A stretch of DNA of 64,000 nucleotides from a virus (IMGVR_UViG_3300032163_000001:110249-174248); one strand, 5' to 3'. Numbered from the stretch's first letter, positions 2,607 to 25,899 are shown. Numbers and translations are program-made. Notes: generated by a model from the sequence alone, not told the origin.

Positions 2607-2633
2607 CAACTAATTTGGTTTAGAGGAGGAGTC

Positions 2634-3392: not shown

Positions 3393-3397
3393 TAGCG

Positions 3398-3456: not shown

Positions 3457-3508
3457 AAACCAATAGGTAAATTTTAAACATTAAACATTTATCAAAAAAG
3501 GAGGGAGT

Positions 3509-4288: not shown

Positions 4289-4289
4289 A

Positions 4290-4500: not shown

Positions 4501-4517
4501 AAGAAGGGGGTGTTTAT

Positions 4518-4709
4518 ATGACTGACAAGGAAAAACTGGTAGGGATACGACAAGCATTGAAAGACATAATTGCCTATCCCAAAAAAGGGGAATCTCGTCG
4601 AACAAGAGACGGTTATCCTTCTGAAATTATTCATGACAAATTTGCGTATGACCGTATTGTGAAATCGTATCGTGATGCACTTAAAAAGGTTCTTCATCAA
4701 TACAAATAA
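4518..4709 (+). CDS. Hypothetical small basic protein
   Basis: SD AAGAAGGGGG. 63-aa ORF. Confidence 0.4.
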   Translation: MTDKEKLVGIRQALKDIIAYPKKGESRRTRDGYPSEIIHDKFAYDRIVKSYRDALKKVLHQYK

Positions 4710-4765
4710 CATCTAAACGGAGGAACCGCATTTTTTTCTAAAATAATATAAATCAAGGAGAAATT

Positions 4766-5161
4766 ATGAGACGTACGAGAATCAAAACTTTTACAATCTC
4801 TGAAATCTTAGACAATATTGATCTTTGTAAAGATAGTATGATATTAGATGAGTTTTCTGTCAATCTAACTCCTAGATTTCTAACTTTTAAAGTAGATGGA
4901 ATAAAATGTCATCACTGCGGATTAGAGGGTAGTTTCTTCTCTTTGGATAAATTTCAGATGGACAAATCTCCTCACTTAAATCTCTATGCTATTAAAGATG
5001 GAAAAGAAGTTTTAATGACATCTGATCATATTATACCGAAATCAAAAGGAGGTAGTAACGGTATAAGTAATAGGCAGTGCCTTTGTCATAAATGTAATGA
5101 GAAGAAAGATCCTGCTGTAAACAAGAAGGGAGAAAAAGATGGAGAAAGATCACGAGTTTAG
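4766..5161 (+). CDS. HNH endonuclease (small, free-standing)
   Basis: CHHCG...DHIIPKSKGGSNGISNRQCLCHKCNEKK is an HNH motif with Zn-binding Cys pairs. SD AAGGAGA. Confidence 0.7.
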   Translation: MRRTRIKTFTISEILDNIDLCKDSMILDEFSVNLTPRFLTFKVDGIKCHHCGLEGSFFSLDKFQMDKSPHLNLYAIKDGKEVLMTSDHIIPKSKGGSNGISNRQCLCHKCNEKKDPAVNKKGEKDGERSRV

Positions 5162-5366
5162 AAATTTATCTACTAATCACAATGTCATTATTTTAAAGTC
5201 GAATTCAAGTATATGTCATTCTAGTTGTCCTTGGAAACGCATGCTAGGTTTTTACTGTTATTTGTTTAATCGTAAGTTAGAAATTAATAATAATGTGGGT
5301 CCATATACAAACCGCTGTTTTGAATGTATTAAGATGGAAAAAAAGAAAGAGAGAATAGTACTATAG
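5139..5366 (+). CDS. Hypothetical Cys-rich small protein (weak)
   Basis: ORF with SD-like AAGGGAG. Overlaps the previous gene end. Low complexity. Confidence 0.25.
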   Translation: MEKDHEFRNLSTNHNVIILKSNSSICHSSCPWKRMLGFYCYLFNRKLEINNNVGPYTNRCFECIKMEKKKERIVL

Positions 5367-5381
5367 AAAGGGAGATGAACG

Positions 5382-5897
5382 ATGCAAAAAGAAGCAGAGG
5401 AGAAAGAATTGGAGAAAGAATTAGAGTTACTAATGAAAGAGGTAAAAACGGTAGTGGATTTTTTCCAAACAAAAACTGGAGAAAAATTGATGAAGATTCT
5501 TCTAGAAAAAACTGAACCAGAAGGGAGAACAAAAGAGTGTCCAAGCATTGATGAAATGTTAGTAGTATCTAAACAGTCCCATGAACGAGTTTATGAAGTT
5601 CTTAAAGATTTTGATTTTAAAGATATGAATTTATTACCAGATCCGCCAAGTTCTCCACTCTTACAAAATCCTCCGCTATTTAGACATATCGCAACTTGCT
5701 ACCATTGTACAATGTGGTTATCTGCTTATAGTAGTCCAACTTCTATTAAAATCCTAGGGGATCTTAAGAAACAATTTAAACCTTCTGAAATAAATAAAGT
5801 TAAAATTATTCTAAGACTTACTAAGAAAATGCAGAATCAAGCCATAGATCTTTTACTTAAAAAGGCAAAAGAAGAAAAAGAAGGAGATAAAAAATGA
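5382..5897 (+). CDS. Hypothetical protein
   Basis: SD AAAGGGAG. 171-aa ORF. Confidence 0.45.
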   Translation: MQKEAEEKELEKELELLMKEVKTVVDFFQTKTGEKLMKILLEKTEPEGRTKECPSIDEMLVVSKQSHERVYEVLKDFDFKDMNLLPDPPSSPLLQNPPLFRHIATCYHCTMWLSAYSSPTSIKILGDLKKQFKPSEINKVKIILRLTKKMQNQAIDLLLKKAKEEKEGDKK

Positions 5898-6157
5898 AAA
5901 AAGTTAGTGTATCTTCTGCACCATGGGGTGATCCATATCCGTGTGGTGATTTAACAGTTGTACGCATTGGTGGGAAAGTAGTAGGTACTACTGTTGGTGG
6001 AGACCCAATAGAAATTAAACAACTTGCTAAAAAGTCCTATGAACTGGGTTTAAAGGATGGTAGAAAAGAAGATAAACAAAATATCAAATCAGAAGATTGT
6101 ACAGGTGCTGCCAAGTGTATAAAATCTTACGAGAAGTTAACACAACCTAAAAAATAA
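5894..6157 (+). CDS. Hypothetical protein
   Basis: SD AAGGAGA. ATGA start/stop overlap with upstream gene. Confidence 0.45.
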   Translation: MKKVSVSSAPWGDPYPCGDLTVVRIGGKVVGTTVGGDPIEIKQLAKKSYELGLKDGRKEDKQNIKSEDCTGAAKCIKSYEKLTQPKK

Positions 6158-6159
6158 GT

Positions 6160-6207
6160 ATTTAGTTTAATTTAGTTTAAACTAAACTATTTAGTTTAAG
6201 TTCTCTT
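6160..6207. repeat. Direct and palindromic repeats of TTTAGTTTAA, including the perfect palindrome TTTAGTTTAAACTAAA (candidate operator/terminator)
   Basis: Three or more copies of TTTAGTTTAA within 45 nt. The 16-nt unit is self-complementary. Confidence 0.4.
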
Positions 6208-6242
6208 GATTTACATATATTAATTTTTGAAAGGAGGAACTA
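6208..6242 (+). promoter_or_regulatory. Conserved bipartite motif copy 2: TACATATATTAATT-N5-GAAAGGAGGAAC
   Basis: See copy 1. Here the GGAGG also serves as SD for ATG 6243. Confidence 0.5.
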
Positions 6243-6437
6243 ATGTGTGTGATAGAAAGTGAACAAGAAATTTGTGGGACTTGTCGTTTTTGGGATTTTT
6301 TACATTACGCTGCAGGTGGTGGAGATAATTTAGATTGTAAAAGGTTTCCAAGGTATGAGGAAAAGGGAAAGTTTGAATCTTGTGGAGAATGGAAATCTAG
6401 AAAGGAAAAACAAATCTTACACGAATCGAAAGAATGA
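6243..6437 (+). CDS. Hypothetical Cys-rich small protein
   Basis: ORF directly after motif/SD. CGTC...C...C pattern. Confidence 0.4.
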   Translation: MCVIESEQEICGTCRFWDFLHYAAGGGDNLDCKRFPRYEEKGKFESCGEWKSRKEKQILHESKE

Positions 6438-6461
6438 TTTATTGAGAGAAGGGAGAATATC

Positions 6462-7151
6462 ATGCAAAAACCAATACTAGACAAAATCATAGTTGTTGAT
6501 ATAGAAACAACTTGTTGGAGACAAGATGAGTGGCCTAAACTTGAAGATGGTTCTAAAGTTAGGAGTGAGATTATTGAAATTGGAATCTGTTTGCTTGATA
6601 TAAGAAGTAAAGTAGTTTCGGAAAATAAAGGTTTTATAATCAAGCCAGAGAGGACAGAAGTTAGTAAGTTCTGTGAAAATTTAACTACTTTAAAACAAGA
6701 AGATGTAGATAAAGGACAGTCTTTGGTATCTGCTATATCAACTATAACAGATATTTACAAAGCTCCTAAAAGAGTGTGGTCTAGTTATGGTTTTTTTGAT
6801 AAAAACCATGTTTCTCAAGAATGCTATGATAAAAGAATTAAATATCCATTCTCACAAAGACACATTAATGTTAAAACTTTATTTGCAGTTAAAAATGAAT
6901 TGCGTGAAGAAGTTGGAATGGCTAGAGCTTTAGACATGTTAAAAATACAACCTATTGGAATACACCATAGAGGAGTAGATGATGCTGCTAATATAGCAAA
7001 GATTCTAGCTGTTACAATCGAAGGGAGAGAAGAAGAGTTTAGAAAACTAATAGAAGAGTTGGAGAAGGAAGATAGAAAATTAAAGGAAGAGTTGAAGCGT
7101 GTTACAAGTGAACGAGATCAATTAAGAATATTACATGAACCATTACCCTAG
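6462..7151 (+). CDS. DEDDh 3'-5' exonuclease (DnaQ/RNase T-like; T4 DexA-like role)
   Basis: Exo I motif VVDIETT. Exo III motif HHRGVDDAANIAKIL. 229 aa with coiled-coil C-terminus. Confidence 0.7.
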   Translation: MQKPILDKIIVVDIETTCWRQDEWPKLEDGSKVRSEIIEIGICLLDIRSKVVSENKGFIIKPERTEVSKFCENLTTLKQEDVDKGQSLVSAISTITDIYKAPKRVWSSYGFFDKNHVSQECYDKRIKYPFSQRHINVKTLFAVKNELREEVGMARALDMLKIQPIGIHHRGVDDAANIAKILAVTIEGREEEFRKLIEELEKEDRKLKEELKRVTSERDQLRILHEPLP

Positions 7152-7206
7152 AAAAAATGAAAGGAGGTATAAATATCGAAAAATTAAAGTAAGGAGGGTA
7201 TAGAAC

Positions 7207-7908
7207 GTGGAAGCAAGACTAAAAATCATTCCTAAATGGACTATCGAAAAAATTGATGGTGGAATTATGATAAATGGCGTGCCCTACAAAGATTATATTA
7301 AAGAAGTTGAAGATCAGCAACTAAGAGCTGAAATAGAACTAGAAGTTAAGAACCAGATTAAAGAAAAGAGAGCAGCCATTTCACACTGTGAACCTAAACA
7401 CAACTCGCTCATCAAAAATGGACCAGCAGGGAAATGTATAATTTTTCCTATAAAGCGAATACGAAAGGAGTATCCAAATATGTCAGTAACAGAGAAAACA
7501 AACGAAGAGAAAATCGTAGAAATGATTATTGACCAGGGACCAATATCAGGGAGAGATATTTCTAAACACCTTGGTATAGAACTATCCTCAATCAGAGCTG
7601 CTGTAAGTAGAATTACCAGATCCGTACCCGATCTTATTGATAAAATTCGAGATGGTACATCAGTTACTTATCTGAAAAATAAACACTCTGGATTTGGTCA
7701 GGAACTGACAGCAAAAGATGTATACGAAAAGTACAGAGAAAGAAGTACGAAGAAAGGCATAAAGAAAGAAGTAAAAACTCCATTTTCTCCAACCCCGTCA
7801 CTTATACCAGAACTTAGTACTTTAATGGGGATACCAAAAGAAGTGAAAGTTACAGTTGAGTTTATTGGACAAATCAATGTAGTTTTTGGATTTAAGAAAT
7901 CTGATTGA
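7207..7908 (+). CDS. Hypothetical protein with possible winged-helix region (GTG start)
   Basis: SD AAGGAGGG 8 nt upstream of GTG. Segment GPISGRDISKHLGIELSSIRAAVSRI is HTH-like. Confidence 0.4.
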   Translation: MEARLKIIPKWTIEKIDGGIMINGVPYKDYIKEVEDQQLRAEIELEVKNQIKEKRAAISHCEPKHNSLIKNGPAGKCIIFPIKRIRKEYPNMSVTEKTNEEKIVEMIIDQGPISGRDISKHLGIELSSIRAAVSRITRSVPDLIDKIRDGTSVTYLKNKHSGFGQELTAKDVYEKYRERSTKKGIKKEVKTPFSPTPSLIPELSTLMGIPKEVKVTVEFIGQINVVFGFKKSD

Positions 7909-7953
7909 GAAGGAGGGTGAACTCAAAATTTCTTTTAGAAGGAGGGGTGTGAC

Positions 7954-8202
7954 ATGATTAAGTTAGGTAGTAAAGTAAGAGATCCGATTACAGGATTGAC
8001 AGGTATTGCAGTAGTACGATCAGAATGGTTGTGGGGATGTGTAAGAATAGGAATACAACCCAATGAGATAAAAGATGGAAAACCTGTCGAGGAAACCTGG
8101 TTCGATGAGAACCGATTGGAAGTAGTCGTTAAAGAAAAAGGAGAAAAATCAAAACTAACTGGTGGTCCCGGAAGAGAGAGTAGAAAAGTAATTGAGGGAT
8201 AA
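7954..8202 (+). CDS. Hypothetical protein
   Basis: SD GGAGGGG. 82 aa. Confidence 0.4.
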   Translation: MIKLGSKVRDPITGLTGIAVVRSEWLWGCVRIGIQPNEIKDGKPVEETWFDENRLEVVVKEKGEKSKLTGGPGRESRKVIEG

Positions 8203-8263
8203 CATAACCTTCCTTATTTTCTCTCTTCATTCTAAAAAAAAAGAGAAAGGAGGTGATATATAA

Positions 8264-8515
8264 ATGGGAGAAATGAAAGTTATGATTCCTTTTAATGATC
8301 CAGAACATCCAAAAGAAGCAGGTCACATCAAAGAAGTATGGGATTCCTCTAAACCTGAAGAAGTACAACATGCGAAGGAAACTTATGAAAAATTTACTAA
8401 AAAAGGCTATCTTGCTTTTAGGGTAAAAAAGAATGGAGAACCTGGAGAAAAGATAAGTAAGTTTGATGCAGATGCTGAAATGATAATTCTCCAACCAATG
8501 TTAGCAGGAGGATAA
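8264..8515 (+). CDS. Hypothetical protein
   Basis: SD AAAGGAGG. 83 aa. Confidence 0.4.
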   Translation: MGEMKVMIPFNDPEHPKEAGHIKEVWDSSKPEEVQHAKETYEKFTKKGYLAFRVKKNGEPGEKISKFDADAEMIILQPMLAGG

Positions 8516-8516
8516 T

Positions 8517-9362
8517 ATGCAAGCTATAATGCTAGCTGCAGATGGTTCATCTGAACTTAATTGTATTGATAAGGAATATCCTTGTTTCAAAAGAGTGAAA
8601 TTACCTGAATCTTCTTACTACAAAGAAGATCAAGATCAAGATAGTCTTGTAGAAGTAGGAGTTATTCAATACAATCAAGTTGGTAGAATTTCATCAACAA
8701 ATTATTTGTTTGAACCAGAAATTAATAGGGATTCTGATTTAGTAATCTATATAGAAGAAGGAGTAAAGGAGGTGAGTGTAAGAGTGGTTTGTAATAATGA
8801 AACTAGTGATAATTCTTGGAGATATTGGACAAATAATACATACACAGCTTATACGTCAGGTGCATTTGTCCAATGGACAACTGATAGTGCTACAGCTAAT
8901 GTTGGTGGTTGCACTTTGGTATGTCAGAAACAACAACTCCGTCAAGAAACAGAAGAACAGAAGTGTGAAAGATTAGTTAAAGAAGAGGTAGCTAAAGAAG
9001 CAGTTAGAGTAGCAGCTGAAGAGTTGAAGAAAGAACAAAAGAGACTAAAAGAACTAAGAGAACTGTCTGAAAAGAGAGCTCTTGAACTTCTCTTAGATAA
9101 TCTCGATGGTAACCAAAAAGAAATTTATGAGAAGACCGGTGCTATTCCTGTTAAACCCCCTTCGGGTAGGCAGTATCAAATAGATGGTAAAAGTGGAACC
9201 ATATATGAATTGAATAGCGCTGGCAAGAAAATAAGTTCAATTTGTATTCATCCTCAACAAAGCTTTCCTCTTGCAGATTCTATCCTTGCTAAAAAATTAA
9301 TGTTTGAAATATGTGAAGAAGAAGCAAGGAAAATAGGTAATTTTTCTGATTGTAGAGCTTAA
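8517..9362 (+). CDS. Hypothetical protein with C-terminal coiled coil
   Basis: SD GGAGGATAATATG. 281 aa. Confidence 0.45.
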   Translation: MQAIMLAADGSSELNCIDKEYPCFKRVKLPESSYYKEDQDQDSLVEVGVIQYNQVGRISSTNYLFEPEINRDSDLVIYIEEGVKEVSVRVVCNNETSDNSWRYWTNNTYTAYTSGAFVQWTTDSATANVGGCTLVCQKQQLRQETEEQKCERLVKEEVAKEAVRVAAEELKKEQKRLKELRELSEKRALELLLDNLDGNQKEIYEKTGAIPVKPPSGRQYQIDGKSGTIYELNSAGKKISSICIHPQQSFPLADSILAKKLMFEICEEEARKIGNFSDCRA

Positions 9363-9482: not shown

Positions 9483-10577
9483 CTAACACGGTAATTTATT
9501 TATAATCTCTTTATTTATTTTTTGTAATAAGAGTTTCCATTCATCTCTGTTAGAGTTAGTTTTAGCATGAGTAGAATGATTTAACCAGATTAGATTTTCT
9601 CTTGAGTCGTTTTGTTTGTTATAGTCTATGTGATGCAGGTGAGCTTCATCTGTTAACAACTCTTCTGTAATTGGATCTATGTTGTTTTGTTCTTGTTTGA
9701 TTTGACTTCGAAAATCTATGTTGAAGAATTTTTCTGTGTAGGGTGCAAATCTTTGTTCTCTATCTTCTATCCATCGATAGTTGTTTGGTCCAGTTCTTTT
9801 TTCTATAACTTCTGGAATTAGTAGTGGACTTTTATACCCATATTTCTCAAACACCTTTTCTTCAGACTTCTTTCTAACTTCAGGGTTAGACATAGCATGT
9901 TTAACTCCATATCTTTCTAAGTTAGTATTTTCTCTTCTCTCTTTAAACTCTTCAACTTGAGAAGGATTTTCTACTCCATATTTTTGAATACAAGTTTCTT
10001 TCTTCTTTTCTTTAATTTTAGATTCTCTTCCCGGATGTCCTTCTTCATAGTTCTTTTCCCAAGTATTTAAACACCTTTCCATAATATCAGGATTTGACAT
10101 CGCGTGTTTAACTCCATATCTTTCTAGATTAGTATTTTCTCTTTTCTTCTTAAATTCTTCAACCTGAGATGCATTTTTAACTCCATATTTCTCTAAAAAT
10201 GTTTGTTTACTCTTTTCTCTGATTTCTCTCCTCTTCATCGCATTATCCACACCATAGCGTTCTAAGTTCGTTCTTTTTGATTTTAAAGGATTGTTATAGG
10301 CGGGAGTTCCATATTTCTTTATTTTTGCTTCTTTCACTAGATTTTTATGAAATTCACTTTTCTGTACACATTTCCCATGGTATTTAAAGTATCCTCTTTC
10401 CATACAATCGAAGTTAGTAGCCTTTTTGCAAACTTCACAAAAACCTTCGTCATCTTTTTTTAAATATAAATCATAATATTCTTGAACTTTACTATGAAGT
10501 TTTTGAATATGCGTAGATAAGCTTCTTAACAATTCAAAATTCTTGTTACAAATTCTACATACTTTTTCACTAGACAT
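9483..10577 (-). CDS. HNH homing endonuclease with tandem YGV-repeat DNA-binding modules
   Basis: C-terminal HHIDYNKQNDSRENLIWLNHSTH is an HNH motif. Three or more repeats of ExYGVxNxSQVEEFK..RENTNLERYGVKHAMSNP. N-terminal Cys cluster. Confidence 0.65.
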   Translation of the reverse strand: MSSEKVCRICNKNFELLRSLSTHIQKLHSKVQEYYDLYLKKDDEGFCEVCKKATNFDCMERGYFKYHGKCVQKSEFHKNLVKEAKIKKYGTPAYNNPLKSKRTNLERYGVDNAMKRREIREKSKQTFLEKYGVKNASQVEEFKKKRENTNLERYGVKHAMSNPDIMERCLNTWEKNYEEGHPGRESKIKEKKKETCIQKYGVENPSQVEEFKERRENTNLERYGVKHAMSNPEVRKKSEEKVFEKYGYKSPLLIPEVIEKRTGPNNYRWIEDREQRFAPYTEKFFNIDFRSQIKQEQNNIDPITEELLTDEAHLHHIDYNKQNDSRENLIWLNHSTHAKTNSNRDEWKLLLQKINKEIINKLPC

Positions 10578-10671: not shown

Positions 10672-12651
10672 TTATTTTATGAAAAAGTTTAATTCTATTT
10701 TTTCGACTACTCTTGTAGGCTGAAGCGTCACGTTGATGTGAAATGTCTTTGTCTTCTTTTCATAATCACTAGCCCCTACTTCTACACTATATGAATAGAG
10801 ACCTCTCTTTTTCTTAAGATTTTCTAAGAATTCAACGATGTTACCAGCAACCATGTTCCAAGTAATTTGGTCATTCATTTCAAAAACGAAGAACCGACAA
10901 TAACGTTCTAGAGCTTTCTTACAATAAAGAACCAATCTTACAATATTTAAATCTTGTAAAGCGCTAGCTTTAGCTTGTGTAGTTAACTGACCCCAAACCA
11001 CATATCCTTCGTTAAATTTAACAATTGGGTTCAGTTGCTTCAAATACATTTGATCTCTTTGACCAAGTGAAGGGTTAAATCTTAGTTCTCTAATAGAATC
11101 GATTGCTGCTCGATTAAAGCCAGCTGCTGCATACCACAACTCTGCTACTGCATCATTTCGAGGTAAAATGTAAGACATATGATAAATTGGAGAGAACCAT
11201 ATATTTTGACCAGTAAACTGATCATAAACTTTGCTATATTCTTCGTACAAAGCACAGAAGTAGTTATTAAAAGTATGTACATCTTGTCTCTTACTCATAG
11301 CAGTAAGATAAGTTGGGTTATCTCCATTGTCCAATATAGCTACACAATCTCTTCTAGTCGTAACTAGACTTGAAATAAAAGTTTTAACCTCAGATGGATA
11401 TCCGCAATCAAACACCATATTAAAATAGACTGTTTCTGTGTCTAGAATTGACTCTACACGATCAGTACCATTTTCTACTGAAATTATTGTTCCAGCATAT
11501 CCTTGAGAAAGTAGTTGAGTAGCTTCCTCTTCAACTAGTTTTCCAGTTCCGTCTTTTAAAGCTCCATCAGAACCTTCCTTTAAAGGAAGTGGATTAAGAC
11601 TATTAAAAGGAGCAGCTATATTTCCATACTCTTTCTTGATATAATAATTTACTCCATAAGAAGCATCAAAATAGTCTATTTCACCGATCCAGCCTTTAAT
11701 TGCAGTAGTTAAATCTTTTTCATTAAAAACGTTGATTTGTGTTTTCTCACCTGAAGCTGTACCTAACCAACCATGAATTTTATTTCCTCTTCCATCAATA
11801 GCTATAATTGCAAAGTTAGCATTTCCAGTTTCAACGGCCGTTTGCCACTGAGTAAAATCTTGTTTTGAATCGCTAATAAAAGCACCACCATTTAGAATGT
11901 TAATATCAACGACTCCAATATTTTTGTCGTATATCTTAACTATATCATAATATCCAGAAGAATAGTCTTCGCTTGTTAAAATCATGTCAGCTCTAAGAAC
12001 TGCTGAATAAGTTTTTAACACATAAACAACCCAAATTGAATCTCCCGAGTTGTCAGTTGCACTTGGATCAAAAGATACTTCAAAAGATTCAATTATAGCT
12101 TCGTCTCCATCTGACTGTTTTTCATAGATGTCCATTACATAAACGCCAAATAGAGTTGGATTAGAATGTTCCAGAAATCTTACACCTAAACCGTTATAAT
12201 ATTCTCCTCTACCAATAGGATAGAAAATACAAATTGGATTAACCTCTCCTACTGTTTCTAAAGCAGTGTTGATATCTGTTTTTGTATTGATCGTATCTTC
12301 ATATTCTATTCTAATAGTAGCAGTTGAATCTGAACCAACCATTTCTGAACTAAATTTAATGTTTGCAAAAGTAGCATCAATTGATAAACATCTCATGAAA
12401 TATAGAGAACCAGATTCTCCCAAATAATTATAAGCACAATACAAACCTTGTCCATAATTCTTACCATATAAATTGATGTCGGGAGATCCCCATTCACTAA
12501 CAAGTTCAGATCTGGAGCCAACAAACTTTAATACGTTATCTTCTCCTTTTTCTGTCAAAGCACAAATTAATCCAGTCGTACCAGGAACTGCTTGTACGTA
12601 TGTGCTCAGATCTATGATTTTAGTATAAACCCCTGGTGAAATGTTCGGCAT
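10672..12651 (-). CDS. Contractile tail sheath protein (gp18-like)
   Basis: N-terminus MPNISPGVYTKIIDLS matches the sheath N-terminal signature (T4 gp18 MTLLSPGIELKE). 659 aa. Confidence 0.75.
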   Translation of the reverse strand: MPNISPGVYTKIIDLSTYVQAVPGTTGLICALTEKGEDNVLKFVGSRSELVSEWGSPDINLYGKNYGQGLYCAYNYLGESGSLYFMRCLSIDATFANIKFSSEMVGSDSTATIRIEYEDTINTKTDINTALETVGEVNPICIFYPIGRGEYYNGLGVRFLEHSNPTLFGVYVMDIYEKQSDGDEAIIESFEVSFDPSATDNSGDSIWVVYVLKTYSAVLRADMILTSEDYSSGYYDIVKIYDKNIGVVDINILNGGAFISDSKQDFTQWQTAVETGNANFAIIAIDGRGNKIHGWLGTASGEKTQINVFNEKDLTTAIKGWIGEIDYFDASYGVNYYIKKEYGNIAAPFNSLNPLPLKEGSDGALKDGTGKLVEEEATQLLSQGYAGTIISVENGTDRVESILDTETVYFNMVFDCGYPSEVKTFISSLVTTRRDCVAILDNGDNPTYLTAMSKRQDVHTFNNYFCALYEEYSKVYDQFTGQNIWFSPIYHMSYILPRNDAVAELWYAAAGFNRAAIDSIRELRFNPSLGQRDQMYLKQLNPIVKFNEGYVVWGQLTTQAKASALQDLNIVRLVLYCKKALERYCRFFVFEMNDQITWNMVAGNIVEFLENLKKKRGLYSYSVEVGASDYEKKTKTFHINVTLQPTRVVEKIELNFFIK

Positions 12652-13449: not shown

Positions 13450-14265
13450 TTAAAATAGAGCAGTTCCACATCCTTTACAAAACTTTGCGTCACTTTTAGA
13501 TCTTCTTCCACACGTTGGACACATAAGTTTAGTTTTAGTATGAACCGGTTTCTCTACTTTTTTACCATCTTTACTACCTTGTAATCTAATAATTATAACA
13601 TGAGAGTTTGTTTCTAAAGTTTCAACATTAGCAGGATAAAACACTTGTTCTGATTTAGATCCCGGCACGGTTATTCCATCAACATTGCAATTAAAACAAT
13701 TTACTTGTTCTATATTTTTATTTTGAAGATTATTAGAACAATTAAATGTTACGTCTCCCGGACTTCCAGATGTTAAACCTTTACCAACACTATAATTTCC
13801 GCTTGGTCCATATGATATATAAGGAGAATAAGGAGGCCACCAAGGCCAGTAGTAATAATTCCAATCATGATGGTGATAATGATAATCATTAATAACTTGA
13901 GGTTTAGAGGCTTCGAAAGTATACTGAACTCTGATGAGCCCATCATCTAATCTGTTCCCACGAAAGTTTGAAATCTGTTCTGTTTTCTCAATGAACTTAA
14001 ATTTGTTCACAACTCGAAAATCTTTTAAGAAGCCCTCTAAGGGGGTAGTTGAATTTGGTGTAACAATAATTGAACTATCAGAAACATCTATTCCATCAAT
14101 TGAAATTTTAACTAAAGCAGATCTGGTTTCTAAATTTTTAAGTAGTATTTGGTACTCAGAAGTAAATGGGAGTTTGACTACTGACTCTCCATTTTCATCA
14201 AATGTTTCTCTTAAAATTTTTCCATTACACTTAACTGCAACGACGAAACCTATTTTATGTACCAT
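13450..14265 (-). CDS. Hypothetical protein with aromatic-rich segment and C-terminal zinc ribbon (CPTCG...CKGCG)
   Basis: 271 aa. HYHHHDWNYYYWPWWPPYSPY segment. C-x2-C...C-x2-C at the C-terminus. Confidence 0.45.
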   Translation of the reverse strand: MVHKIGFVVAVKCNGKILRETFDENGESVVKLPFTSEYQILLKNLETRSALVKISIDGIDVSDSSIIVTPNSTTPLEGFLKDFRVVNKFKFIEKTEQISNFRGNRLDDGLIRVQYTFEASKPQVINDYHYHHHDWNYYYWPWWPPYSPYISYGPSGNYSVGKGLTSGSPGDVTFNCSNNLQNKNIEQVNCFNCNVDGITVPGSKSEQVFYPANVETLETNSHVIIIRLQGSKDGKKVEKPVHTKTKLMCPTCGRRSKSDAKFCKGCGTALF

Positions 14266-16115: not shown

Positions 16116-17225
16116 TTATACTGGTTCTTCTCTTGACCCTAAGTAACAGCCTTTATTCACTCCACTATGGAACCATTTCATATGTCTCATAAGTTCTTCG
16201 TTAGTAGGACCTTCTTCAGATGGTAAATAAGAAACTTCTATGTAAATTTGAGTACATCTACACTCACCATCATAAAATCGAGACATAACATCTCCAAAAT
16301 ATTGTAGAGCATTAACTCCCTCTCCATTTACCCCATCAACAGTCCAAGTATTCCCGGTTTTTGGATTGTCATACCACAGATTTGCTTCCTCAACATAAGA
16401 AGTCTCAAAAGAATGGGCCCCTGATATATATACATGACCTCCAACTTGTATCGCCAAGTTCACGTAACCTGCATGACCTGTATCTACGCTTCTTACTAAA
16501 GCATAAACCTTAACATAATTAATTAATGAACCTTGCGGTATGTTAAAAGACAAAAACCCATATAAATCTTGAGGATCGAAACTACTAACTTCTATATAAA
16601 GTTGAGAAACGTAATATGTTGTTTCAGGACTATCAACCCCATACCCAAATGTATAGTTAGTATGCAAACTATTTATTTCTTCTGGTGTCCAAGGCTCATT
16701 TGTAAACGGATTTATATTTAGTCCCCAGCAAGTTGTTTCCCAATACTCATTGACTGGAAGATACTGTAACATATTACCAAGTCTTACATAAAATTTATCA
16801 CTATTTGATCCAGATAACTGTTGAGCCCGAACATAAATTTTAACAGACTCAATTACTCTATTAATAGGTATATTAAAACTTCCCATTGTAAATTCATCTG
16901 TACCTGCAGAGTCTGTATAATTATAATCATAATCCTCTTCAGGATATTCATTTATAGTTTCATATAGGTAAGATCCTTCTGACGGAGTCCAAGCAACATA
17001 TAAATCAGAAATTGGAAACTGTCGTTGCGTATAGAATGGTTCAGTTATACCGTTTATATAACAATAAGTAGCATCCCCATCGTGATTTCCTATCGGATCA
17101 TCCACAAGAGCATAATTGTAGTTTCCACCAGATCGGAGTTGTATAACATTAACATCAGATGTTGGAACTCTATTTTGAATTTCCATAGTATTATCCCAAC
17201 CAGCAACCTTTATTTTCTCCACCAT
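16116..17225 (-). CDS. Tail fibre/receptor-binding candidate carrying the conserved C-terminal ELMRHMKWFHSGVNKGCYLG motif
   Basis: 369 aa, Tyr/Asn-rich. C-terminal motif is shared with the upstream 824-aa gene. Confidence 0.5.
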   Translation of the reverse strand: MVEKIKVAGWDNTMEIQNRVPTSDVNVIQLRSGGNYNYALVDDPIGNHDGDATYCYINGITEPFYTQRQFPISDLYVAWTPSEGSYLYETINEYPEEDYDYNYTDSAGTDEFTMGSFNIPINRVIESVKIYVRAQQLSGSNSDKFYVRLGNMLQYLPVNEYWETTCWGLNINPFTNEPWTPEEINSLHTNYTFGYGVDSPETTYYVSQLYIEVSSFDPQDLYGFLSFNIPQGSLINYVKVYALVRSVDTGHAGYVNLAIQVGGHVYISGAHSFETSYVEEANLWYDNPKTGNTWTVDGVNGEGVNALQYFGDVMSRFYDGECRCTQIYIEVSYLPSEEGPTNEELMRHMKWFHSGVNKGCYLGSREEPV

Positions 17226-19665
17226 GAAACCATTTAAGATGTCTCATAAGTTCATCCGTAGTGGGAGCCGATGGTGGAGGTGGTGCTTCTGTATATGACC
17301 AAATACTCCCATCTTCTAAACCGGCCCATAATATATCATTTTCAACTTCAAGTGAATAAACGCTCGAATCAAAAGATTGAACATAAATCCAATCTGGATC
17401 ATCAAATCTATAAATCTTAGAATGTGTTTCAGAATTGTGAACACTAACATATAATTTATCATTATAGACAGCAATCTTTGCAGGTATGTTAAAAGGTTCT
17501 TCAAGATCTCCACCAATCTGGGTCCAATCTGTTTCTGATCCACTATATTTTCTAACTACTGTAGGAATTCCGTATGCTCCAGCGACACCGTAAAGTTCAT
17601 CATTAAAAATAATCAAATATTGTCCATAATAGTTATCAGGACTTATTGCTGTCCAAGTTGACTCACCATCAAATCTATAAACTTTTCCCTGATGACCTGC
17701 ACCATAAAGAACAACGAAGTGATTATCAATTGCGGCTAATGATATAATACTAACTTCTGCCCCTAATCTCCCAACAGAAGTCCATACTGGGCCATCATCT
17801 AAACGGTACACTATCCCAGATGGATAAGTTCCCACATATATTTGCCCTTCTCCAGTACCAGTATAGTCAAATTCGATCATACTATAAACAGATTTATTAG
17901 TTGATAAAGTACCTCCAACTTGAGACCATAAATCTGTCCCAGAATCGTACTTATATACTCTTGCATCACTGTCTGTACTACTGTAAATTCCTGTATAAAG
18001 CTCTCCACCATATACCAACAATACATTTGGTCTTTTAGGGGGTTGATGAATCATCAGTGTCCAATCAGGATCGTCAAAACGATACATTTCCATATATTCT
18101 GGAATGTCTACTGCAGTAAAAATGTTGGGAGATAGAAATGCAAAACTATGAACCTCAAATACAGGATATCCTGAGTATAAAGGAGTTCCTCTATTGATAA
18201 ATATAGGTTCAGGAGTTGATTCGTATGACCAAACAGTTCCATCCATTCCAGACCATAGTAATCCATCCCACGCTTTGAAACAATACAGGGAATCATATAT
18301 TTCAAAAATACCAGCTAACTGCTCCCAACTACCTGGAGTTCCTAAATATTTATAAAATTTAATCGGCCAAGGATCATCTCCAAAGCAACCTCCTATATAT
18401 AAGTCAGTACCATCAGAAACAAGTTCTCCATCCCCTCCATCAGCAAAATTTCCAATCTCAGTCCAGTCTGAGGGACCATTATACTTATAAACAAGAAGAG
18501 ACTCTTGATAATGGCAACCATAAAGTTCTCCGTTATGAACTACTAATCGAGAGCCTACTAAGTTTCCACTCTGTGCAACCCAACTACCAGTTACCAGTTT
18601 ATAGACCTTTCCATTGTAACCACCAGCAAATAACTCCCCACCAAAATCTATTAAAGAGTAAATTAAAGTTTCACTATCCACTTGTCCAAGGTCAGTCCAA
18701 GACTCACCATCTAATCTATAAACCTTTCCACTATTCCAGGTTCCAATATGGATTGTTCCATCAAAAACACACATACTACAAACTTCCTCATTAGTTCCAA
18801 TATCTCCTCCCACCTGTGTCCATGTTGTTTCACCCATATACTTGTAAACACGAGCATAATATGTTCCTGGAATTGTGCTTGAAGATGTTCCAACGTAAAG
18901 ATCACCACCGAATTCAACAAATCTATAGGCTGCTTCATATTCTCTAAAAGTACCAACAATTGTCCAAACACCACCATCATATCTATAAACACCAGCTAAG
19001 CTCGCATCGTCTGAACTTGTGCCAGAATATATTTCTCCACCAAAAGAAACAATATCTGACACTCCCCCATATGATAGAACCTCTCCTTTGTAAGTCCATC
19101 CAACAGGTGCTGGTTTTGTGGTAACTTGAGGATGGGATAGACCACTTTCCGGGGAAATTTCCCCTCCATCCAACAATAGTCTAAAATAATAAGTTGTATT
19201 ATAGAGAGCCTTAAGTGGTTGAATTGCAAAATCTATTTCTTGATATCCTATGTCAAAATATTTTGACAATGTTCCACTTTCATAGTAATTACCGTAAAGA
19301 GTACTGTTGCTTAGTTTAAAAGTAGATACTTGAGAAAATTCGTCGCCCTTACCGTTAGCATAAACCCAGTCGTAAGGGTAGGATCCAACATCACTAAAAT
19401 TCACGTCATCAGTACTATATTGCATTGAAACTATACCAGTAGCACCTTCCATCCCAAAGGTATTAACTGCTACCCTGCACCTAATTATGTTGTTATTTTC
19501 GAGTGTGGGTGTTACATTCTCCTCCTCTAATTGTTCAGTAGGTTCGGCTGCATCGTCTTGAAAAAACTTCCAATTGCTTTGAAACTGGGCAAACCAAAAC
19601 CGTAGAGAAGCTGGTGCTTCACCTTCTAATGTAAATGGATTCCACTCAAACTTTCTAATTGGCAT
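17191..19665 (-). CDS. Beta-propeller (kelch-like, YG-repeat) tail fibre protein ending in the ELMRHLKWFHGGENKGCWLG motif
   Basis: 824 aa with many repeats of the G(E/D)LY.G....(V/I)Y(K/R)(Y/F)(D/N) type. Confidence 0.5.
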   Translation of the reverse strand: MPIRKFEWNPFTLEGEAPASLRFWFAQFQSNWKFFQDDAAEPTEQLEEENVTPTLENNNIIRCRVAVNTFGMEGATGIVSMQYSTDDVNFSDVGSYPYDWVYANGKGDEFSQVSTFKLSNSTLYGNYYESGTLSKYFDIGYQEIDFAIQPLKALYNTTYYFRLLLDGGEISPESGLSHPQVTTKPAPVGWTYKGEVLSYGGVSDIVSFGGEIYSGTSSDDASLAGVYRYDGGVWTIVGTFREYEAAYRFVEFGGDLYVGTSSSTIPGTYYARVYKYMGETTWTQVGGDIGTNEEVCSMCVFDGTIHIGTWNSGKVYRLDGESWTDLGQVDSETLIYSLIDFGGELFAGGYNGKVYKLVTGSWVAQSGNLVGSRLVVHNGELYGCHYQESLLVYKYNGPSDWTEIGNFADGGDGELVSDGTDLYIGGCFGDDPWPIKFYKYLGTPGSWEQLAGIFEIYDSLYCFKAWDGLLWSGMDGTVWSYESTPEPIFINRGTPLYSGYPVFEVHSFAFLSPNIFTAVDIPEYMEMYRFDDPDWTLMIHQPPKRPNVLLVYGGELYTGIYSSTDSDARVYKYDSGTDLWSQVGGTLSTNKSVYSMIEFDYTGTGEGQIYVGTYPSGIVYRLDDGPVWTSVGRLGAEVSIISLAAIDNHFVVLYGAGHQGKVYRFDGESTWTAISPDNYYGQYLIIFNDELYGVAGAYGIPTVVRKYSGSETDWTQIGGDLEEPFNIPAKIAVYNDKLYVSVHNSETHSKIYRFDDPDWIYVQSFDSSVYSLEVENDILWAGLEDGSIWSYTEAPPPPSAPTTDELMRHLKWFHGGENKGCWLG

Positions 19666-19681
19666 TAAACTCCACCTTGGC

Positions 19682-20506
19682 CTATCCTACATACTCAATT
19701 GTTATAGCACCAATTTTTACATACTTACTATTTTGACTATACATACGAATTCGTATATTTAAAGTATCTCCTACTGCGAGATTTGAGATCACATTATCAT
19801 CATCAAAAAACTCTGCTGCTATAGTACCTTCTCTTTCTGAAGCCCAATCTCCAGCAGTTTCTGATACTATATCTGTTATACTAGAAGTAGTAGCTGATCC
19901 ATCTTTAGAAAGTATGATATCAATCTTATTATCTGCCGTTGAATCATCTTCTGTACAGATATCAACAATTATTGCAACTATATCATTAAAGTTAAGAAAT
20001 GTTTCAGGAACTCTCCATTGAAAAGAAATATCATAGCTTTGGAAAGTTACTTCATCAGAAACCCACTTATAGAAATTATAATTAAAATCATTATGGGTTT
20101 CCATATCTGTAGTCATATTTCCAATATTTGCACCACCAGGAGATGCAACGAATGTTGCTCCAGCAAATTCTGGAAAAAATACTTCTTTTCTTGAAAATCT
20201 AACATAATCTTTTGTTACATATTTATTTGTAGCACTTGGAGTTTCTTCTCCAGCTAGTGCTGCTTTCTGGTCTGAAGTTGGTCCAACATCTGATACATCT
20301 TTTAAAGCTACATCTAATTTATTAAGGCTTTCACCATGTGAATCTGTATGATCTATATAGTTTTCTTCGGTATATGACCTGCTACCAAAAACAGCATCTA
20401 TTATATCGAAGTTATTATTTAGAACCTGATCCCACGACTCAAAAGTTTCAGGATCTCGGTGAGATGGTTTCCTTAAGTTTAAATCCTCAGTATAGTTTGA
20501 AGACAT
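19682..20506 (-). CDS. Hypothetical tail/baseplate protein
   Basis: 274-aa ORF, tightly packed in the structural operon. Confidence 0.4.
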   Translation of the reverse strand: MSSNYTEDLNLRKPSHRDPETFESWDQVLNNNFDIIDAVFGSRSYTEENYIDHTDSHGESLNKLDVALKDVSDVGPTSDQKAALAGEETPSATNKYVTKDYVRFSRKEVFFPEFAGATFVASPGGANIGNMTTDMETHNDFNYNFYKWVSDEVTFQSYDISFQWRVPETFLNFNDIVAIIVDICTEDDSTADNKIDIILSKDGSATTSSITDIVSETAGDWASEREGTIAAEFFDDDNVISNLAVGDTLNIRIRMYSQNSKYVKIGAITIEYVG

Positions 20507-20534: not shown

Positions 20535-21437
20535 TTATTCATCTCCGTTTAAGCCATAGTAACGAAAACCATACCACCAAGCACCATAGCCTGGTTTAAA
20601 CCATTTAGTATAGTCATCTGGAAAGTCTGGACTAATCTCAAAAGCTTTGATGTAGTTTGCCTTTTCTCTAGTATTATATTCTTTTTCATTCGAGATATCT
20701 AAAGATACATCAAATACTTCATATCTAGGTTCAACTACAAATAATCTTATTTCACAAATACCGATACCATATAGAGATATATCATCTCTAGGAACTAATC
20801 TTAACTCTAGAGAGCTAATTTCGTTACTAGTAAATTTTCTACTAAAAATTTTTTCCCAAAAGACTGTTTCCCAAGTTGAACTAAAAAATATTTCATCAGG
20901 TTTTAGTACACGCCATGAAGAACCTACTTTAATTATCGCACTTAAAGGAAAACTATTAGGAGGTCCAGATAGTTGTCTACCTCTAACTGCTATATCAATC
21001 CATCTATCTATCGATGAAGTTTCAACATCGTTAAAACCAAACGTAATAGCCTTAGAAGATGGATATTCAAATAAAGGTAGTGTTTGAGAAACGATTGTGA
21101 TTAATCTATTTTCTGAATAATGTTGTATTTCTCTTGGACTTGTTACTAGAGCAATAATTGTAGTATATAATAATTCGGGATAATAATATTGTATATCATG
21201 AGTATTAGTATCATACCAAACTATCGTAAAACTTGGTCCTTCAATATAATGTTGTAAGTCTTGAATAGACTCTTCAGAAACTATACTAAATAACGGTGTT
21301 TCAATATAGTTTTGTAAGTCTTGAATAGACTCTGCAGAAACTATATTAAACAATGGCGCTTCAATATAATTTTGTAAGTCCTCTATATCTATATCTATAG
21401 TAGACGTAGAATCGAGTTCTTCTTCATAAGTAGGCAT
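20535..21437 (-). CDS. Hypothetical structural protein with three tandem 19-20 aa repeats (IQDLQNYIE.PLF.IVS.ES)
   Basis: Protein repeats correspond to roughly 60-bp DNA tandem repeats. Confidence 0.45.
   Translation of the reverse strand: MPTYEEELDSTSTIDIDIEDLQNYIEAPLFNIVSAESIQDLQNYIETPLFSIVSEESIQDLQHYIEGPSFTIVWYDTNTHDIQYYYPELLYTTIIALVTSPREIQHYSENRLITIVSQTLPLFEYPSSKAITFGFNDVETSSIDRWIDIAVRGRQLSGPPNSFPLSAIIKVGSSWRVLKPDEIFFSSTWETVFWEKIFSRKFTSNEISSLELRLVPRDDISLYGIGICEIRLFVVEPRYEVFDVSLDISNEKEYNTREKANYIKAFEISPDFPDDYTKWFKPGYGAWWYGFRYYGLNGDE
21243..21400. repeat. About 2.6 copies of a 60-bp tandem repeat inside the 20535-21437 gene
   Basis: TCAATATA(A/G)T(G/T)TTGTAAGTCTTGAATAGACTCT(T/G)CAGAAACTATA(C/T)TAAA(T/C)AA(C/T)GG(T/C)G(T/C)T repeated head-to-tail. 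Confidence 0.6.
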
Positions 21438-21452
21438 TATAGTATCTCACTT

Positions 21453-22013
21453 TTACTGTAGTTTAATTCTAATTGTACAACCTAAAGTTTCATCTGCAGA
21501 TAATGTTCTACTTTGACTTAGAGCTACATAAGAAATAAGAGGTCCTGCAGTTCCGCTTCCAACTGTAGTTAGAACTGAATAAGTTACGGGTCCCCAACTA
21601 CCACCAGTAGCCTGAAAAATTACTTGTGCAGAAGTAATCATGTAATCTCCAGAATCAAGTTCTAAAGTAGGCCAGCTCGTACTATCTCTCGTTATTTCTT
21701 GTCTCTCATACCCATTAGTTGATGGCTCTCCCATAATATCTGCTAAAGAATCAGTTTCCTCAGGAGTATCATCAACAAGCATGAGATAGAAAGTTGGAGG
21801 AACATTTTGGTCCCTAAAATAAGCATCTAAAAGATTTTCTTCTCCTTCATCTGCTAAAGCATTTTCAGTAGTCCATTTAGCTATAAGTTCCCCATTTTTA
21901 TCTCTATGTTCCCATTCATATACTCCAAGCCAAAAAGGATGTTTCTTTCCATAGAGAACCTGCCTAGTAGCTGCCATCAGTTTTTCTTTAAAATTATTCG
22001 TAAACAACTTCAT
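21453..22013 (-). CDS. Hypothetical structural protein
   Basis: 186-aa ORF. Confidence 0.4.
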   Translation of the reverse strand: MKLFTNNFKEKLMAATRQVLYGKKHPFWLGVYEWEHRDKNGELIAKWTTENALADEGEENLLDAYFRDQNVPPTFYLMLVDDTPEETDSLADIMGEPSTNGYERQEITRDSTSWPTLELDSGDYMITSAQVIFQATGGSWGPVTYSVLTTVGSGTAGPLISYVALSQSRTLSADETLGCTIRIKLQ

Positions 22014-24461: not shown

Positions 24462-25100
24462 TTAACCTTCTCCTCTATACGGAAGTATTTGAACTGAATT
24501 TATAGCCGTATAGTTAAACATATTTTCCACAAGGTAAACTTCATAACAACATTCTAGAACAGATGATGGAGTTGATAATAAAGTTTCATTATCATATAAA
24601 CTAAAAGAGTTATTTATCTTAAGATCTAAATATAAATAAACCATTTTTGATAGTTGAGTTGATAAAGAATTATAGTCAATATCAAGAATGATACTAGCAG
24701 TTGAATCAGCAGTTCTATATTCAAGAAGTTTATCAAGTATTTGTAAGTCATTAATATTAGTTGCATCTGTACTTAAAGAAAAAATATTTGTGTTACAAAC
24801 TGGAGGATCGTCGTCTGCTATAAAATATCTACCAGTAACTGGATAAAGAAGTAATCTGGTTTTTATAATATTAGTCCATGTTCTCGTTGCATCTTCTCTA
24901 TACAAATATCTATATGAAGTATAAATTCTAGGCCAATTATCATCGAACAGCAATCGAATGAAACTTCTATTTTCAGTAAAAAGAGAATCTGGTAATGAAA
25001 CTGGATATGGAACACCAGATTTATTTAGAGCGGTTCTCTTCAAAAAATTAGAGAAATAATACTGCACTTCACCAACTAGTGTATTACTATTTGGAGGCAT
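24462..25100 (-). CDS. Hypothetical structural protein
   Basis: 212-aa ORF. Confidence 0.4.
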   Translation of the reverse strand: MPPNSNTLVGEVQYYFSNFLKRTALNKSGVPYPVSLPDSLFTENRSFIRLLFDDNWPRIYTSYRYLYREDATRTWTNIIKTRLLLYPVTGRYFIADDDPPVCNTNIFSLSTDATNINDLQILDKLLEYRTADSTASIILDIDYNSLSTQLSKMVYLYLDLKINNSFSLYDNETLLSTPSSVLECCYEVYLVENMFNYTAINSVQILPYRGEG

Positions 25101-25899
25101 TAACTTCTTCTCCTACATTTAAGATTTTATTTGCACGTCTGGTTTCCCATTGTTTCTTATAAAATTCGATTGGACGATTTTTTGCTGATATACTCATATT
25201 TTTTCTAGTTTCTTCAGATTTTGGTTTTCCTTTAAGTGCTTTACTAATTTTTTCTCTAATCTGAATGGAACGAGGTCCTGTACGTTTTCCTTTTCTTGCT
25301 TTACTCTTTTTCTCCTTTACTTCTAGTCTACCGGATGTTTCAATTCCTGAGCACTTATTGCACATCTTACTTAATTGCAGTACTTCTCTTTCTCCACATA
25401 TAGGACATAGTTTTCTATTAGTTGTAATACCACCTTTCCAATTTGGATGATTCTCTCTAGAAAAATTTGGTCTTTTCTTTCCTCTCCAAACTTTACTACT
25501 TCTTTCTCTATCTTCTTCAGTAAAAAGATATCCAGAAGAACCTTCACCGCCATCAGTTTGGTTAGTTAAAGGACCTGATTTTAAATCAGATCTACCAATC
25601 ACAGAAATAAGAGACCTTTCTAGTTCAAAAGCTTGTTTTTCATTTACGTTATCTTTGAATTTTATAACAATAGGTTCTAGCCCTTCTTGTATAATTTTTT
25701 TAATCTTGTTAAACTTATGAAAATTTCCAGAATAACATTTATTATAGTTTTTAGCTTCTTTCAAATGAGCTAAATATTGATTCTTTTTTCCTTTTCCTAC
25801 ATAAAATGGTTCATAGTCAAATGAGTATTTATTATAATTATATTTTCCATATTTTCTTGGATCTAAATACATATAAACATAGAAATTATTTAGATCCAT
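25087..25899 (-). CDS. GIY-YIG homing endonuclease (Seg/I-TevI-like)
   Basis: N-terminal FYVYMYLDP...PFYVGKGKKNQYLAH is the classic GIY-YIG motif. NHPNWKGG and CPICGE Zn-finger/NUMOD-like C-terminal half. Confidence 0.8.
   Translation of the reverse strand: MDLNNFYVYMYLDPRKYGKYNYNKYSFDYEPFYVGKGKKNQYLAHLKEAKNYNKCYSGNFHKFNKIKKIIQEGLEPIVIKFKDNVNEKQAFELERSLISVIGRSDLKSGPLTNQTDGGEGSSGYLFTEEDRERSSKVWRGKKRPNFSRENHPNWKGGITTNRKLCPICGEREVLQLSKMCNKCSGIETSGRLEVKEKKSKARKGKRTGPRSIQIREKISKALKGKPKSEETRKNMSISAKNRPIEFYKKQWETRRANKILNVGEEVNASK

Follow-up and report, generated by a model that had tools for sequence, protein, structure and literature searches.

Two adjacent genes on the minus strand of a 64,000-nt stretch of viral DNA (IMGVR_UViG_3300032163_000001, positions 110249–174248; this whole stretch is referred to below as the window) encode proteins of different size and domain composition, open reading frame (ORF) 824 and ORF369, that end in closely similar peptides. 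The locus raises the question of what this shared end does and, if it binds another protein, which one. The comparative evidence described here argues, with moderate confidence, that the shared end (hereafter the tail) is an autonomous docking module, or plug, whose socket would be the knob domain at the end of the protein encoded immediately upstream, ORF274.

The tail of ORF824 and ORF369

The two genes and their copies of the tail are located as follows (positions in the window).

17191..19665, minus strand: ORF824, with an N-terminal shuffled domain of ~185 amino acids (aa), two Kelch-like β-propellers, a Pro-rich linker and the tail (from translation and homologues)
16116..17225, minus strand: ORF369, with two carbohydrate-binding-module (CBM)-like β-sandwich domains and the tail (from translation and an AlphaFold2 (AF2) model)
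17194..17265, minus strand: tail module of ORF824 (PTTDELMRHLKWFHGGENKGCWLG), after a PPPPSA linker (repeat copy 17195–17266)
16137..16208, minus strand: tail module of ORF369 (PTNEELMRHMKWFHSGVNKGCYLG), followed by SREEPV (repeat copy 16138–16209)

ORF824 ends in PPPPSAPTTDELMRHLKWFHGGENKGCWLG and ORF369 in SEEGPTNEELMRHMKWFHSGVNKGCYLGSREEPV (tail part PTNEELMRHMKWFHSGVNKGCYLGSREEPV), in each case immediately before the stop codon. The sole significant BLASTP similarity between the two proteins lies in the last ~29 residues (19/29 identical, E-value (E) 4e-11), and regular-expression and profile scans of all six frames find exactly two copies of the motif in the window. The shared C-terminal module described in an earlier, sequence-only reading of this DNA is real, as is the repeat of about 70 bp reported with it: the underlying DNA is a direct repeat of 72 nt with 79% identity (16138–16209 and 17195–17266, 1057 nt apart), slightly longer than, and shifted from, the approximate extent first given. 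The longest exact run in the repeat is 15 nt, and 5 of the 14 identical-residue codons able to vary synonymously do differ. Because of these synonymous differences, the DNA similarity is regarded as the outcome of protein conservation in an AT-rich genome and not of recent gene conversion.

The longer, 369-aa reading of ORF369 overlaps the ORF824 tail. Its true start is probably the ATG at 17186 (MEIQN..., 356 aa), which lies 4 nt past the ORF824 stop and matches public gene calls. The fibre of 369 aa proposed at first exists as an ORF; it is probably 356 aa long, and it is not fibrous, its last domain being a predicted jelly roll. In the AF2 model of ORF369 residues 215–369 (36-row alignment), this domain is a jelly-roll β-sandwich (mean predicted local distance difference test score (pLDDT) 83) and the tail is a β-hairpin with strands KWFH and VNKGC (pLDDT about 75–78). 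The sandwich fold weakly resembles CBM16/CBM22 and matches uncharacterised phage tail and structural proteins; a second copy of it in ORF369 is predicted from internal similarity. A word-indexed homologue search with ORF369 returned only ORF369 itself.

The propellers of ORF824 match many LamG/Kelch-type proteins, and its N-terminal domain recurs at other positions (N-terminal, mid-protein or immediately ahead of the tail) in proteins P0055, P0062, P0064 and P0067 and in a 653-aa gene of locus L003 (handles in L denote loci, those in P proteins). Residues 190–495 of ORF824 are matched by P0003 and residues 487–824 by P0073. P0003, a close relative encoded on L001, joins a counterpart of ORF824 propeller 1 (73% identity) with one ORF369-like domain and one tail, and ends in PPPPPPGPTNDELMRHLKWFDSSGVFRGCWLGDNEE. 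In these features ORF824 and ORF369 look like carbohydrate- or surface-binding heads, not classical fibres.

When a profile built from three tails (ORF824, ORF369 and P0003) was searched against 1.84 billion representative proteins, 36 matches were obtained at E<=1e-3 in proteins of 64–2433 aa, and 34 of the 36 end within about 6 residues of the C-terminus. Two profile matches, P0077 and P0086, were rejected as members because they are unrelated internal repeats. In the window copies and some 70 other proteins the motif lies at the very C-terminus, and only in L012 at the N-terminus, where it opens the gene that follows the knob gene (GTG start, ribosome-binding site AAAGGAGG); the tail is terminal, yet not strictly C-terminal. 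The domains upstream of it are mutually unrelated (NHL and Kelch-like propellers, BNR plus DUF2341, PKD, BACON, DNRLRE, LamG arrays, M23 peptidase, MG2), and the tail is the sole constant part of otherwise shuffled proteins. The conservation of the family, its terminal position and its independence from the upstream domains are established. The motif had been expected to occur at fibre ends in other phages if it were functional, and it does occur in related phages and well outside their circle.

The tail consensus consists of a Pro-rich linker followed by PT.[DE][EQ][LI]MR[HG].KWF..G..[KQ]G.[WY]LG[WS]R. In an alignment of 30 sequences only the P of PT, the W, the F and a single G never vary, and M and R hardly do. 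The Cys of NKGC, once held to be invariant, is so in the two window copies only; other members have F, M, Y, A, P, N or further residues in its place, and His is often Gly. A metal-binding or disulfide role of the His/His/Cys residues was considered and rejected, none of them being conserved in the family, and a CaaX-like reading of the terminal CWLG was rejected because other members extend past it.

No family in Pfam, NCBIfam or PHROGs covers the tail (ORF824, ORF369 and ten other members were scanned with Pfam), the tail profile gives only chance-level matches among all PDB chain sequences (best E 0.6), and no paper matching the motif strings was found in the searchable literature. A word-indexed search with the three-tail alignment gave zero candidates, and IMG/VR scans with the tail alignment and two degenerate DNA patterns gave none or just the single contig already known. 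The phage-type pattern [DE]LMRHxKWF occurs neither in 185,579 species genomes nor in the metagenome scan; in its fuller form, [DE]LMRHxKWF...C[WY]LG, it is likewise missing from those genomes and almost so from IMG/VR.

The knob encoded upstream

The gene order at the locus is ORF274, ORF824, ORF369, and the product of the first of these genes carries the candidate partner.

19682..20506, minus strand: ORF274, a short fibre protein with a phage-specific N-terminal part of ~100 aa and a C-terminal knob; the proposed anchor fibre
19685..20194, minus strand: knob domain of ORF274 (aa ~105–274, ~170 residues; alignments A4 and A5); the proposed socket

The N-terminal ~100 residues of ORF274 are conserved among phage homologues only, and the knob is predicted to be all-β. 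No relative of ORF274 was found in INPHARED by tblastn, no Pfam or PHROGs family covers the knob, and the knob profile gives chance-level matches only among PDB sequences. The tail and the knob appear to be undescribed sequence families; the underlying principle is already known.

Full-length homologues of ORF274 (45–59% identity) are encoded directly upstream of tail-bearing genes on the phage contigs L003 (51% identity), L012, L013, L014 and L015, and L001 has a partial homologue; the knob-then-tail order of the window is found also in L001, L003, L012 and L013. More widely, an ORF274-type knob ends the gene directly upstream of the tail gene in the window, L001, L003/L004, L005, L008–10, L012, L034, L037, L038, L049, L051, L053, L056, L061 and L064, which is nearly every locus with enough flank and comprises four phage lineages and chromosomes of candidate phyla radiation (CPR) bacteria. 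Intergenic gaps between the two genes are about −1 to 30 nt. P0080 (in L005) and P0084 (in L008) are likewise preceded by a gene that ends in the knob.

A single knob gene can have more than one tail gene behind it, as in the window, L003/L004 and L006, which favours docking. L003/L004 is a ~60-kb phage contig unrelated to the window, in which two adjacent genes end in the motif and are followed by a lysis cassette; L006, a short contig, likewise has two adjacent tail-bearing genes.

The coupling is also seen when the search starts from the alignment of the knob, which retrieved one locus from IMG/VR (L012) and 15 from metagenomes. L012 carries the motif in the very next gene. Among the metagenome loci, the tail ends the next gene in 4/4 of those that have at least 3 kb downstream and a full-domain knob (L013, L017, L018 and L021; L013 is a weak case, with a tail E of 1.5e-4), and the loci beyond these four and L027 are too short to judge.

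Knobs and tails also fall into matching classes. Knobs ending in ..Y[VI]G are paired with tails ending in ..KGC[WY]LG (4 phage loci), those ending in ..Y[ND]R[SGK]L with ..FWW (11/11), and those ending in ..YLAK[FY] or YVSTN with ..QPFTF (3/3). Genomic coupling of the tail to the knob and co-variation of their classes are established, as stated.

Several of these loci have unusual arrangements. In L013 (5597–7243) and L020 (1021–2701) two consecutive knob-fibre paralogues stand ahead of the tail gene, whereas the window has the mirrored arrangement of one knob and two tails. In L005 a very long collagen-like protein of G-x-T repeats (1–6185) has the knob at its end, and the next gene encodes an M23 peptidoglycan peptidase with a signal peptide and the tail (6190–8625); this pair might represent a cell-wall hydrolase displayed on a fibre, belonging either to a CPR organism or to its phage. 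In L008 an AAA_15/AAA_21 ATPase gene and a 158-aa gene are inserted between the knob and tail genes (1189–2812), and may be of defence type.

Cellular relatives and genome context

The loci L008, L017, L018 and L021 are chromosomal, and leucyl-tRNA synthetase, Obg, cyclophilin, ComEA and ComEC are among their neighbours. When the 185,579 species genomes were scanned with a degenerate DNA pattern for Q-x-MRHGKWF, 42 loci were obtained; 35 of them are true, and in all of these the motif lies where an ORF ends. Metagenome-assembled genomes (MAGs) labelled as CPR hold 28/35 of these (12 Ca. Dojkabacteria, 14 'Ca. Saccharibacteria', 1 Microgenomates and 1 Patescibacteria); the remaining MAG labels are unclassified 'bacterium' (4), 'Gammaproteobacteria' (2) and 'Nanoarchaeia' (1). 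Seven Flavobacteriaceae/Bacteroidetes and edge matches were set aside as false or unresolved, those in Flavobacteriaceae being QLMSHGKWF strings in tiny ORFs. In all genome-scan loci that reach far enough upstream, the preceding gene ends in the knob (L034, L037, L038, L049, L051, L053, L056, L061 and L064, and the frameshifted L054).

In CPR loci the product of gene A starts with a signal peptide and carries the knob at its end, and that of gene B has an N-terminal transmembrane (TM) anchor, a large ectodomain and a terminal tail of the form GPTMDQIMRHGKWF..G.KQ.FWW.. or ..QPFTF. The pair is syntenic with a membrane-anchored cyclophilin peptidyl-prolyl isomerase (PPIase), ComEA and ComEC (L008 10225–13307, L017 16089–19216, L018 8043–11148), which suggests a conserved surface or competence neighbourhood.

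These relatives bear on the host of the phage. Outside phages, the ORF824 propellers have their best homologue in P0004, whose N-terminus is type-IV-pilin-like, a feature typical of CPR proteins, and the GC content of the window (33%) falls within the range of Dojkabacteria contigs (32–41%). Together with the MAG labels of the knob and tail homologues, P0004 and GC content suggest that the phage infects a CPR bacterium. The general literature on CPR phages that was searched offered nothing specific.

Judged by its gene content, the source of the window is an uncultured T4-like myovirus. Its capsid protein has at most 25% identity to those of deposited phages. The genes of this context, and the upstream part of the fibre module, are the following.

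44992–46446: gp23-type major capsid protein
49618–51591: gp20-type portal
10672–12651: tail sheath
57667–60909, minus strand: family-B DNA polymerase
20535..22013, minus strand: ORF300 and ORF186, upstream fibre-module genes (from a Pfam search and gene order)

The minus-strand tail-fibre cluster runs ORF186, ORF300, ORF274, ORF824, ORF369, with the tail-bearing pair at its end. ORF186 is Gp80 'fiber I'-like (Pfam PF23140, E 3.7e-12). ORF300 (20535–21437, minus strand) begins with three tandem repeats of ~20 residues (IQDLQNYIE.PLF.IVS.ES) and has a C-terminal β-rich domain with a sequence pattern like that of the ORF369 sandwich domains.

Elsewhere in the window, an 823-aa ORF (30774–33245, plus strand) combines the shoulder domain of Major Vault Protein (PF11978, E 3e-27) with a vault repeat (PF17795), which is unusual for a phage. 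The family-B DNA polymerase (1080 aa) has an N-terminal uracil-DNA-glycosylase-superfamily domain (PF03167, E 1.4e-16) fused to its exonuclease and polymerase domains. A gene for nicotinate phosphoribosyltransferase, an enzyme of NAD salvage (40978–42141, plus strand), adjoins tRNA-Gln(TTG) and tRNA-Trp(CCA), the tRNAs lying at 39387–39460 and 40881–40957. Two putative homing endonucleases are located within the structural region (25087–25899 and 9483–10577, both minus strand): a GIY-YIG (LEM-3-like) gene within the tail module and a DUF7487+HNH gene beside the sheath gene. A 271-aa ORF (13450–14265, minus strand) has a highly aromatic, His-rich stretch, DYHYHHHDWNYYYWPWWPPYSPYISY, and a C-terminal zinc ribbon.

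Proposed docking, its precedents and its alternatives

Docking of the tail into the knob is the most economical reading, because the tail is constant and terminal, occurs in virion and surface proteins, and is tied to a knob encoded upstream with short gaps. ORF274 would be a short fibre, probably trimeric, attached to the baseplate via its phage-specific N-terminal ~100 residues, with the knob distal. ORF824, with two β-propellers, and ORF369, with two CBM-like β-sandwiches, would be receptor-binding proteins (RBPs) that have no virion-attachment domain of their own, and the tail of each would fasten it to the knob. The result would be a branched fibre with binding heads that recombination may exchange while the tail is kept. 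CPR cells have a corresponding pair, a secreted protein A with the knob and a membrane-anchored giant protein B with the tail. We infer the physical binding of tail and knob, the trimeric state of the fibre and the location of the proteins on the virion. A common docking site was among the roles first suggested for the shared end, and the comparative evidence favours it; the likely partner is the ORF274 knob, not a baseplate protein.

By sequence similarity, the phage pair is homologous to a surface-assembly system of host type. A wider and more tentative proposal is that tail and knob form an undescribed plug-and-socket surface-assembly system native to CPR/Patescibacteria and functionally like cohesin–dockerin, in which protein B would capture protein A or be captured by it, that phages took over the pair for branched fibres with swappable heads, and that the pair marks CPR hosts.

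Precedents for such coupling exist. In Klebsiella phages, the secondary RBP has a docking peptide that binds a branching domain on the primary RBP, as validated experimentally (PMC6872550, PMC13352976). Anchor–branch systems of this kind in Klebsiella/E. coli phages (KP32, KP34, K1-5/SP6, G7C) have a T4gp10-like branching domain on RBP1 and a conserved docking peptide on RBP2 (PMC6872550; PMC13352976); the known docking peptides are N-terminal, and those of K1-5/SP6-type phages have 7 and 11 residues (PMC6872550, PMC13352976). As in these systems, a primary fibre or spike gene is followed in the window by one or more secondary RBP genes: ORF824 and ORF369 come directly after the putative anchor ORF274 and share no domain other than the short terminal peptide, their remaining domains being exchanged, and peptide and partner domain occur in group-specific pairs. 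Unlike the known docking peptides, that of the window has ~28 residues and is C-terminal (N-terminal in L012 only), and the proposed socket is a distal C-terminal knob. hmmscan found no T4gp10-like domain in ORF274 (Pfam E<=0.1, PHROGs E<=0.01), the published assignments of this domain having used HHpred. The tail–knob pair differs further in occurring also in cellular (CPR) surface proteins, and here we infer the interaction from the genes.

A second precedent comes from T2/T6/S16-type phages, in which an adhesin gene lies directly downstream of the long-tail-fibre gene and its product is placed on the fibre tip (PMC3157838). The window resembles this gp37–gp38 arrangement in its T4-like myovirus context (gp23-like capsid, gp20-like portal, sheath) and in having a fibre gene followed by separate genes for specificity adhesins that would bind the distal fibre end. 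Whereas gp38 is a small protein that attaches by its N-terminal domain and has glycine-rich motifs, the window encodes two large multi-domain proteins with a C-terminal peptide. Pfam assigns no family to ORF274, ORF824 or ORF369, and INPHARED gives no tblastn match for ORF274, that would place them with gp37 or gp38.

The cohesin–dockerin system is similar in that unrelated catalytic or binding proteins carry one small terminal module that fits a β-sandwich socket on a scaffold, in matching types, and M23 peptidase, LamG and CBM-like cargo is found in the CPR and phage versions of the pair. Dockerins have about 70 aa and duplicated Ca-binding loops, whereas the tail has ~28 aa and no such repeat, and each scaffold would have one socket and not an array. 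No dockerin or cohesin domain of Pfam is present in ORF274, ORF824, ORF369 or ten other family members. Because the opposite terminus carries the peptide and the family searches matched neither partner to the families that define these systems, the tail–knob pair is considered analogous to, yet not a member of, the anchor–branch, gp37–gp38 and cohesin–dockerin systems.

The tail could instead be a foldon-like self-assembly tag, trimerising the binding domains on their Pro-rich linkers independently of the knob, which we regard as unlikely. The foldon of T4 fibritin is C-terminal, has ~27–28 residues and consists of an extended Pro-containing segment followed by a β-hairpin; the tail, a ~28-residue segment at the very end of phage fibre-module proteins, is a module of similar size in which an extended Pro-rich segment precedes a predicted β-hairpin. 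Such a tag is compatible with the position independence seen in L012, and propellers and CBM-like domains would gain avidity by oligomerising. However, the tail follows these domains and not a coiled coil or other trimeric segment, and it has no sequence similarity to fibritin or any PDB chain. A self-assembly tag also leaves unexplained the near-obligatory neighbourhood of the knob, the domain of a second protein to which the tail is genomically coupled, and the co-variation of their classes.

About equally unlikely is that the aromatic-basic tail (MRHxKWF...FWW / WLGWR) binds the CPR envelope (a wall polymer, the S-layer, the membrane interface or a host knob protein), so that the cellular protein B fastens its distal end by the tail and the phage proteins, by mimicry, stick to the host by theirs. 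The tail is common to phage proteins and extracytoplasmic CPR proteins and resembles interfacial peptides in its abundance of W, F, R and K, and phage RBPs usually contact the host via their C-terminus. Against this, the phage tails form a sequence class of their own, paired with a phage-type knob, and are not copies of the cellular classes; the phages encode their own knob directly upstream; and the variable upstream domains (propellers, CBM-like, BACON, LamG) already look like receptor binders.

A processing or recognition signal, read by a protease, a folding factor (for which the CPR cyclophilin is a candidate) or an assembly chaperone, and removed or unneeded in the mature protein, is quite improbable. 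A cyclophilin-type PPIase with an N-terminal TM segment is encoded directly downstream of gene B in L008, L017 and probably L018, the motif opens with a conserved Pro (P-T), and tailspikes and fibres are known to have C-terminal chaperone domains such as the Peptidase_S74 intramolecular chaperone domain. However, the phage loci encode no PPIase beside the pair, and the whole peptide is conserved, not just a cleavage site. The intramolecular chaperone or cleavage signal of the sequence-only reading finds no support: the module has only ~28 residues and is N-terminal in one phage (L012), no Peptidase_S74 or other catalytic domain accompanies it, and the C-termini of the tail-bearing proteins scanned have no Pfam, NCBIfam or PHROG match to an autoproteolytic chaperone of that type (~100–150 aa). 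Nor do NCBIfam or Pfam detect a sorting signal there (LPXTG, PEP-CTERM and relatives, or the C-terminal domain of type IX secretion), and the tail lacks any hydrophobic stretch. Phage proteins that are not exported carry the tail as well; because it occurs on virion proteins, which are assembled in the cytoplasm, and also on extracytoplasmic proteins of cells, a role in protein–protein assembly is preferred to that of a sorting signal.

That the repeat is kept as DNA homology for fibre-module exchange, the peptide being incidental, is scarcely credible: the 72-nt direct repeat and the clear shuffling of modules between tail-bearing genes, as in P0003, are real, but exact matches reach 15 nt at most, the synonymous differences point to selection on the peptide, recombination between the direct repeats would delete ORF369, and constraint on the protein is indicated because the peptide is conserved across genomes with fully diverged DNA (40–60% amino-acid identity between phage and CPR).

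Several observations weigh against docking itself. The single-sequence AF2 model of ORF274 is unreliable (pLDDT 40), and no binding groove can be assigned. In L011, the T4-like relative that carries P0070, the upstream neighbour of the tail gene is a collagen-like protein whose globular C-terminal domain has no detectable homology to the knob, and hhalign of the knob profile with this protein shows no relationship. L027 has a weak and partial match to the knob (62 aa, E 2e-5), and the ~3.9 kb that follow it contain no tail. Knob and tail genes are 1–1.6 kb apart in L008 and L049, through a 1.6-kb insertion in L008. Class co-variation would be the pattern expected of co-evolving partners and is confounded by shared descent; both it and adjacency may stem from operon co-inheritance. 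The CPR loci are largely orthologous, which reduces the independent observations to about 4–5 phage lineages and a CPR clade. Tails of the same genome are not always more similar to each other (0.54–0.96) than tails of different genomes (mean 0.55). The analysis covers 64 kb of a 111–185-kb contig. Even so, no rival accounts for the coupling to the knob as well as docking does.

If docking is confirmed, the tail and knob would be a new portable docking pair for phage RBPs, in which the peptide is C-terminal and a distal knob takes the place of the T4gp10-like domain as its partner. Docking pairs of this sort have already been used to re-programme host range (PMC13352976). In CPR bacteria, the pair would reveal a conserved two-protein surface structure, whose cargo (LamG arrays, M23 peptidase, collagen-like fibres) fits what an episymbiont might use on its host cell; to our knowledge, little has been described of the CPR surface machinery for host attachment. 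The homology would also be evidence for a large T4-like phage infecting CPR bacteria, to which, as far as we know, few phages have been confidently assigned. On the wider proposal, the tail–knob pair would also serve as a sequence marker that places otherwise unplaceable phages, that of the window included, in CPR hosts.

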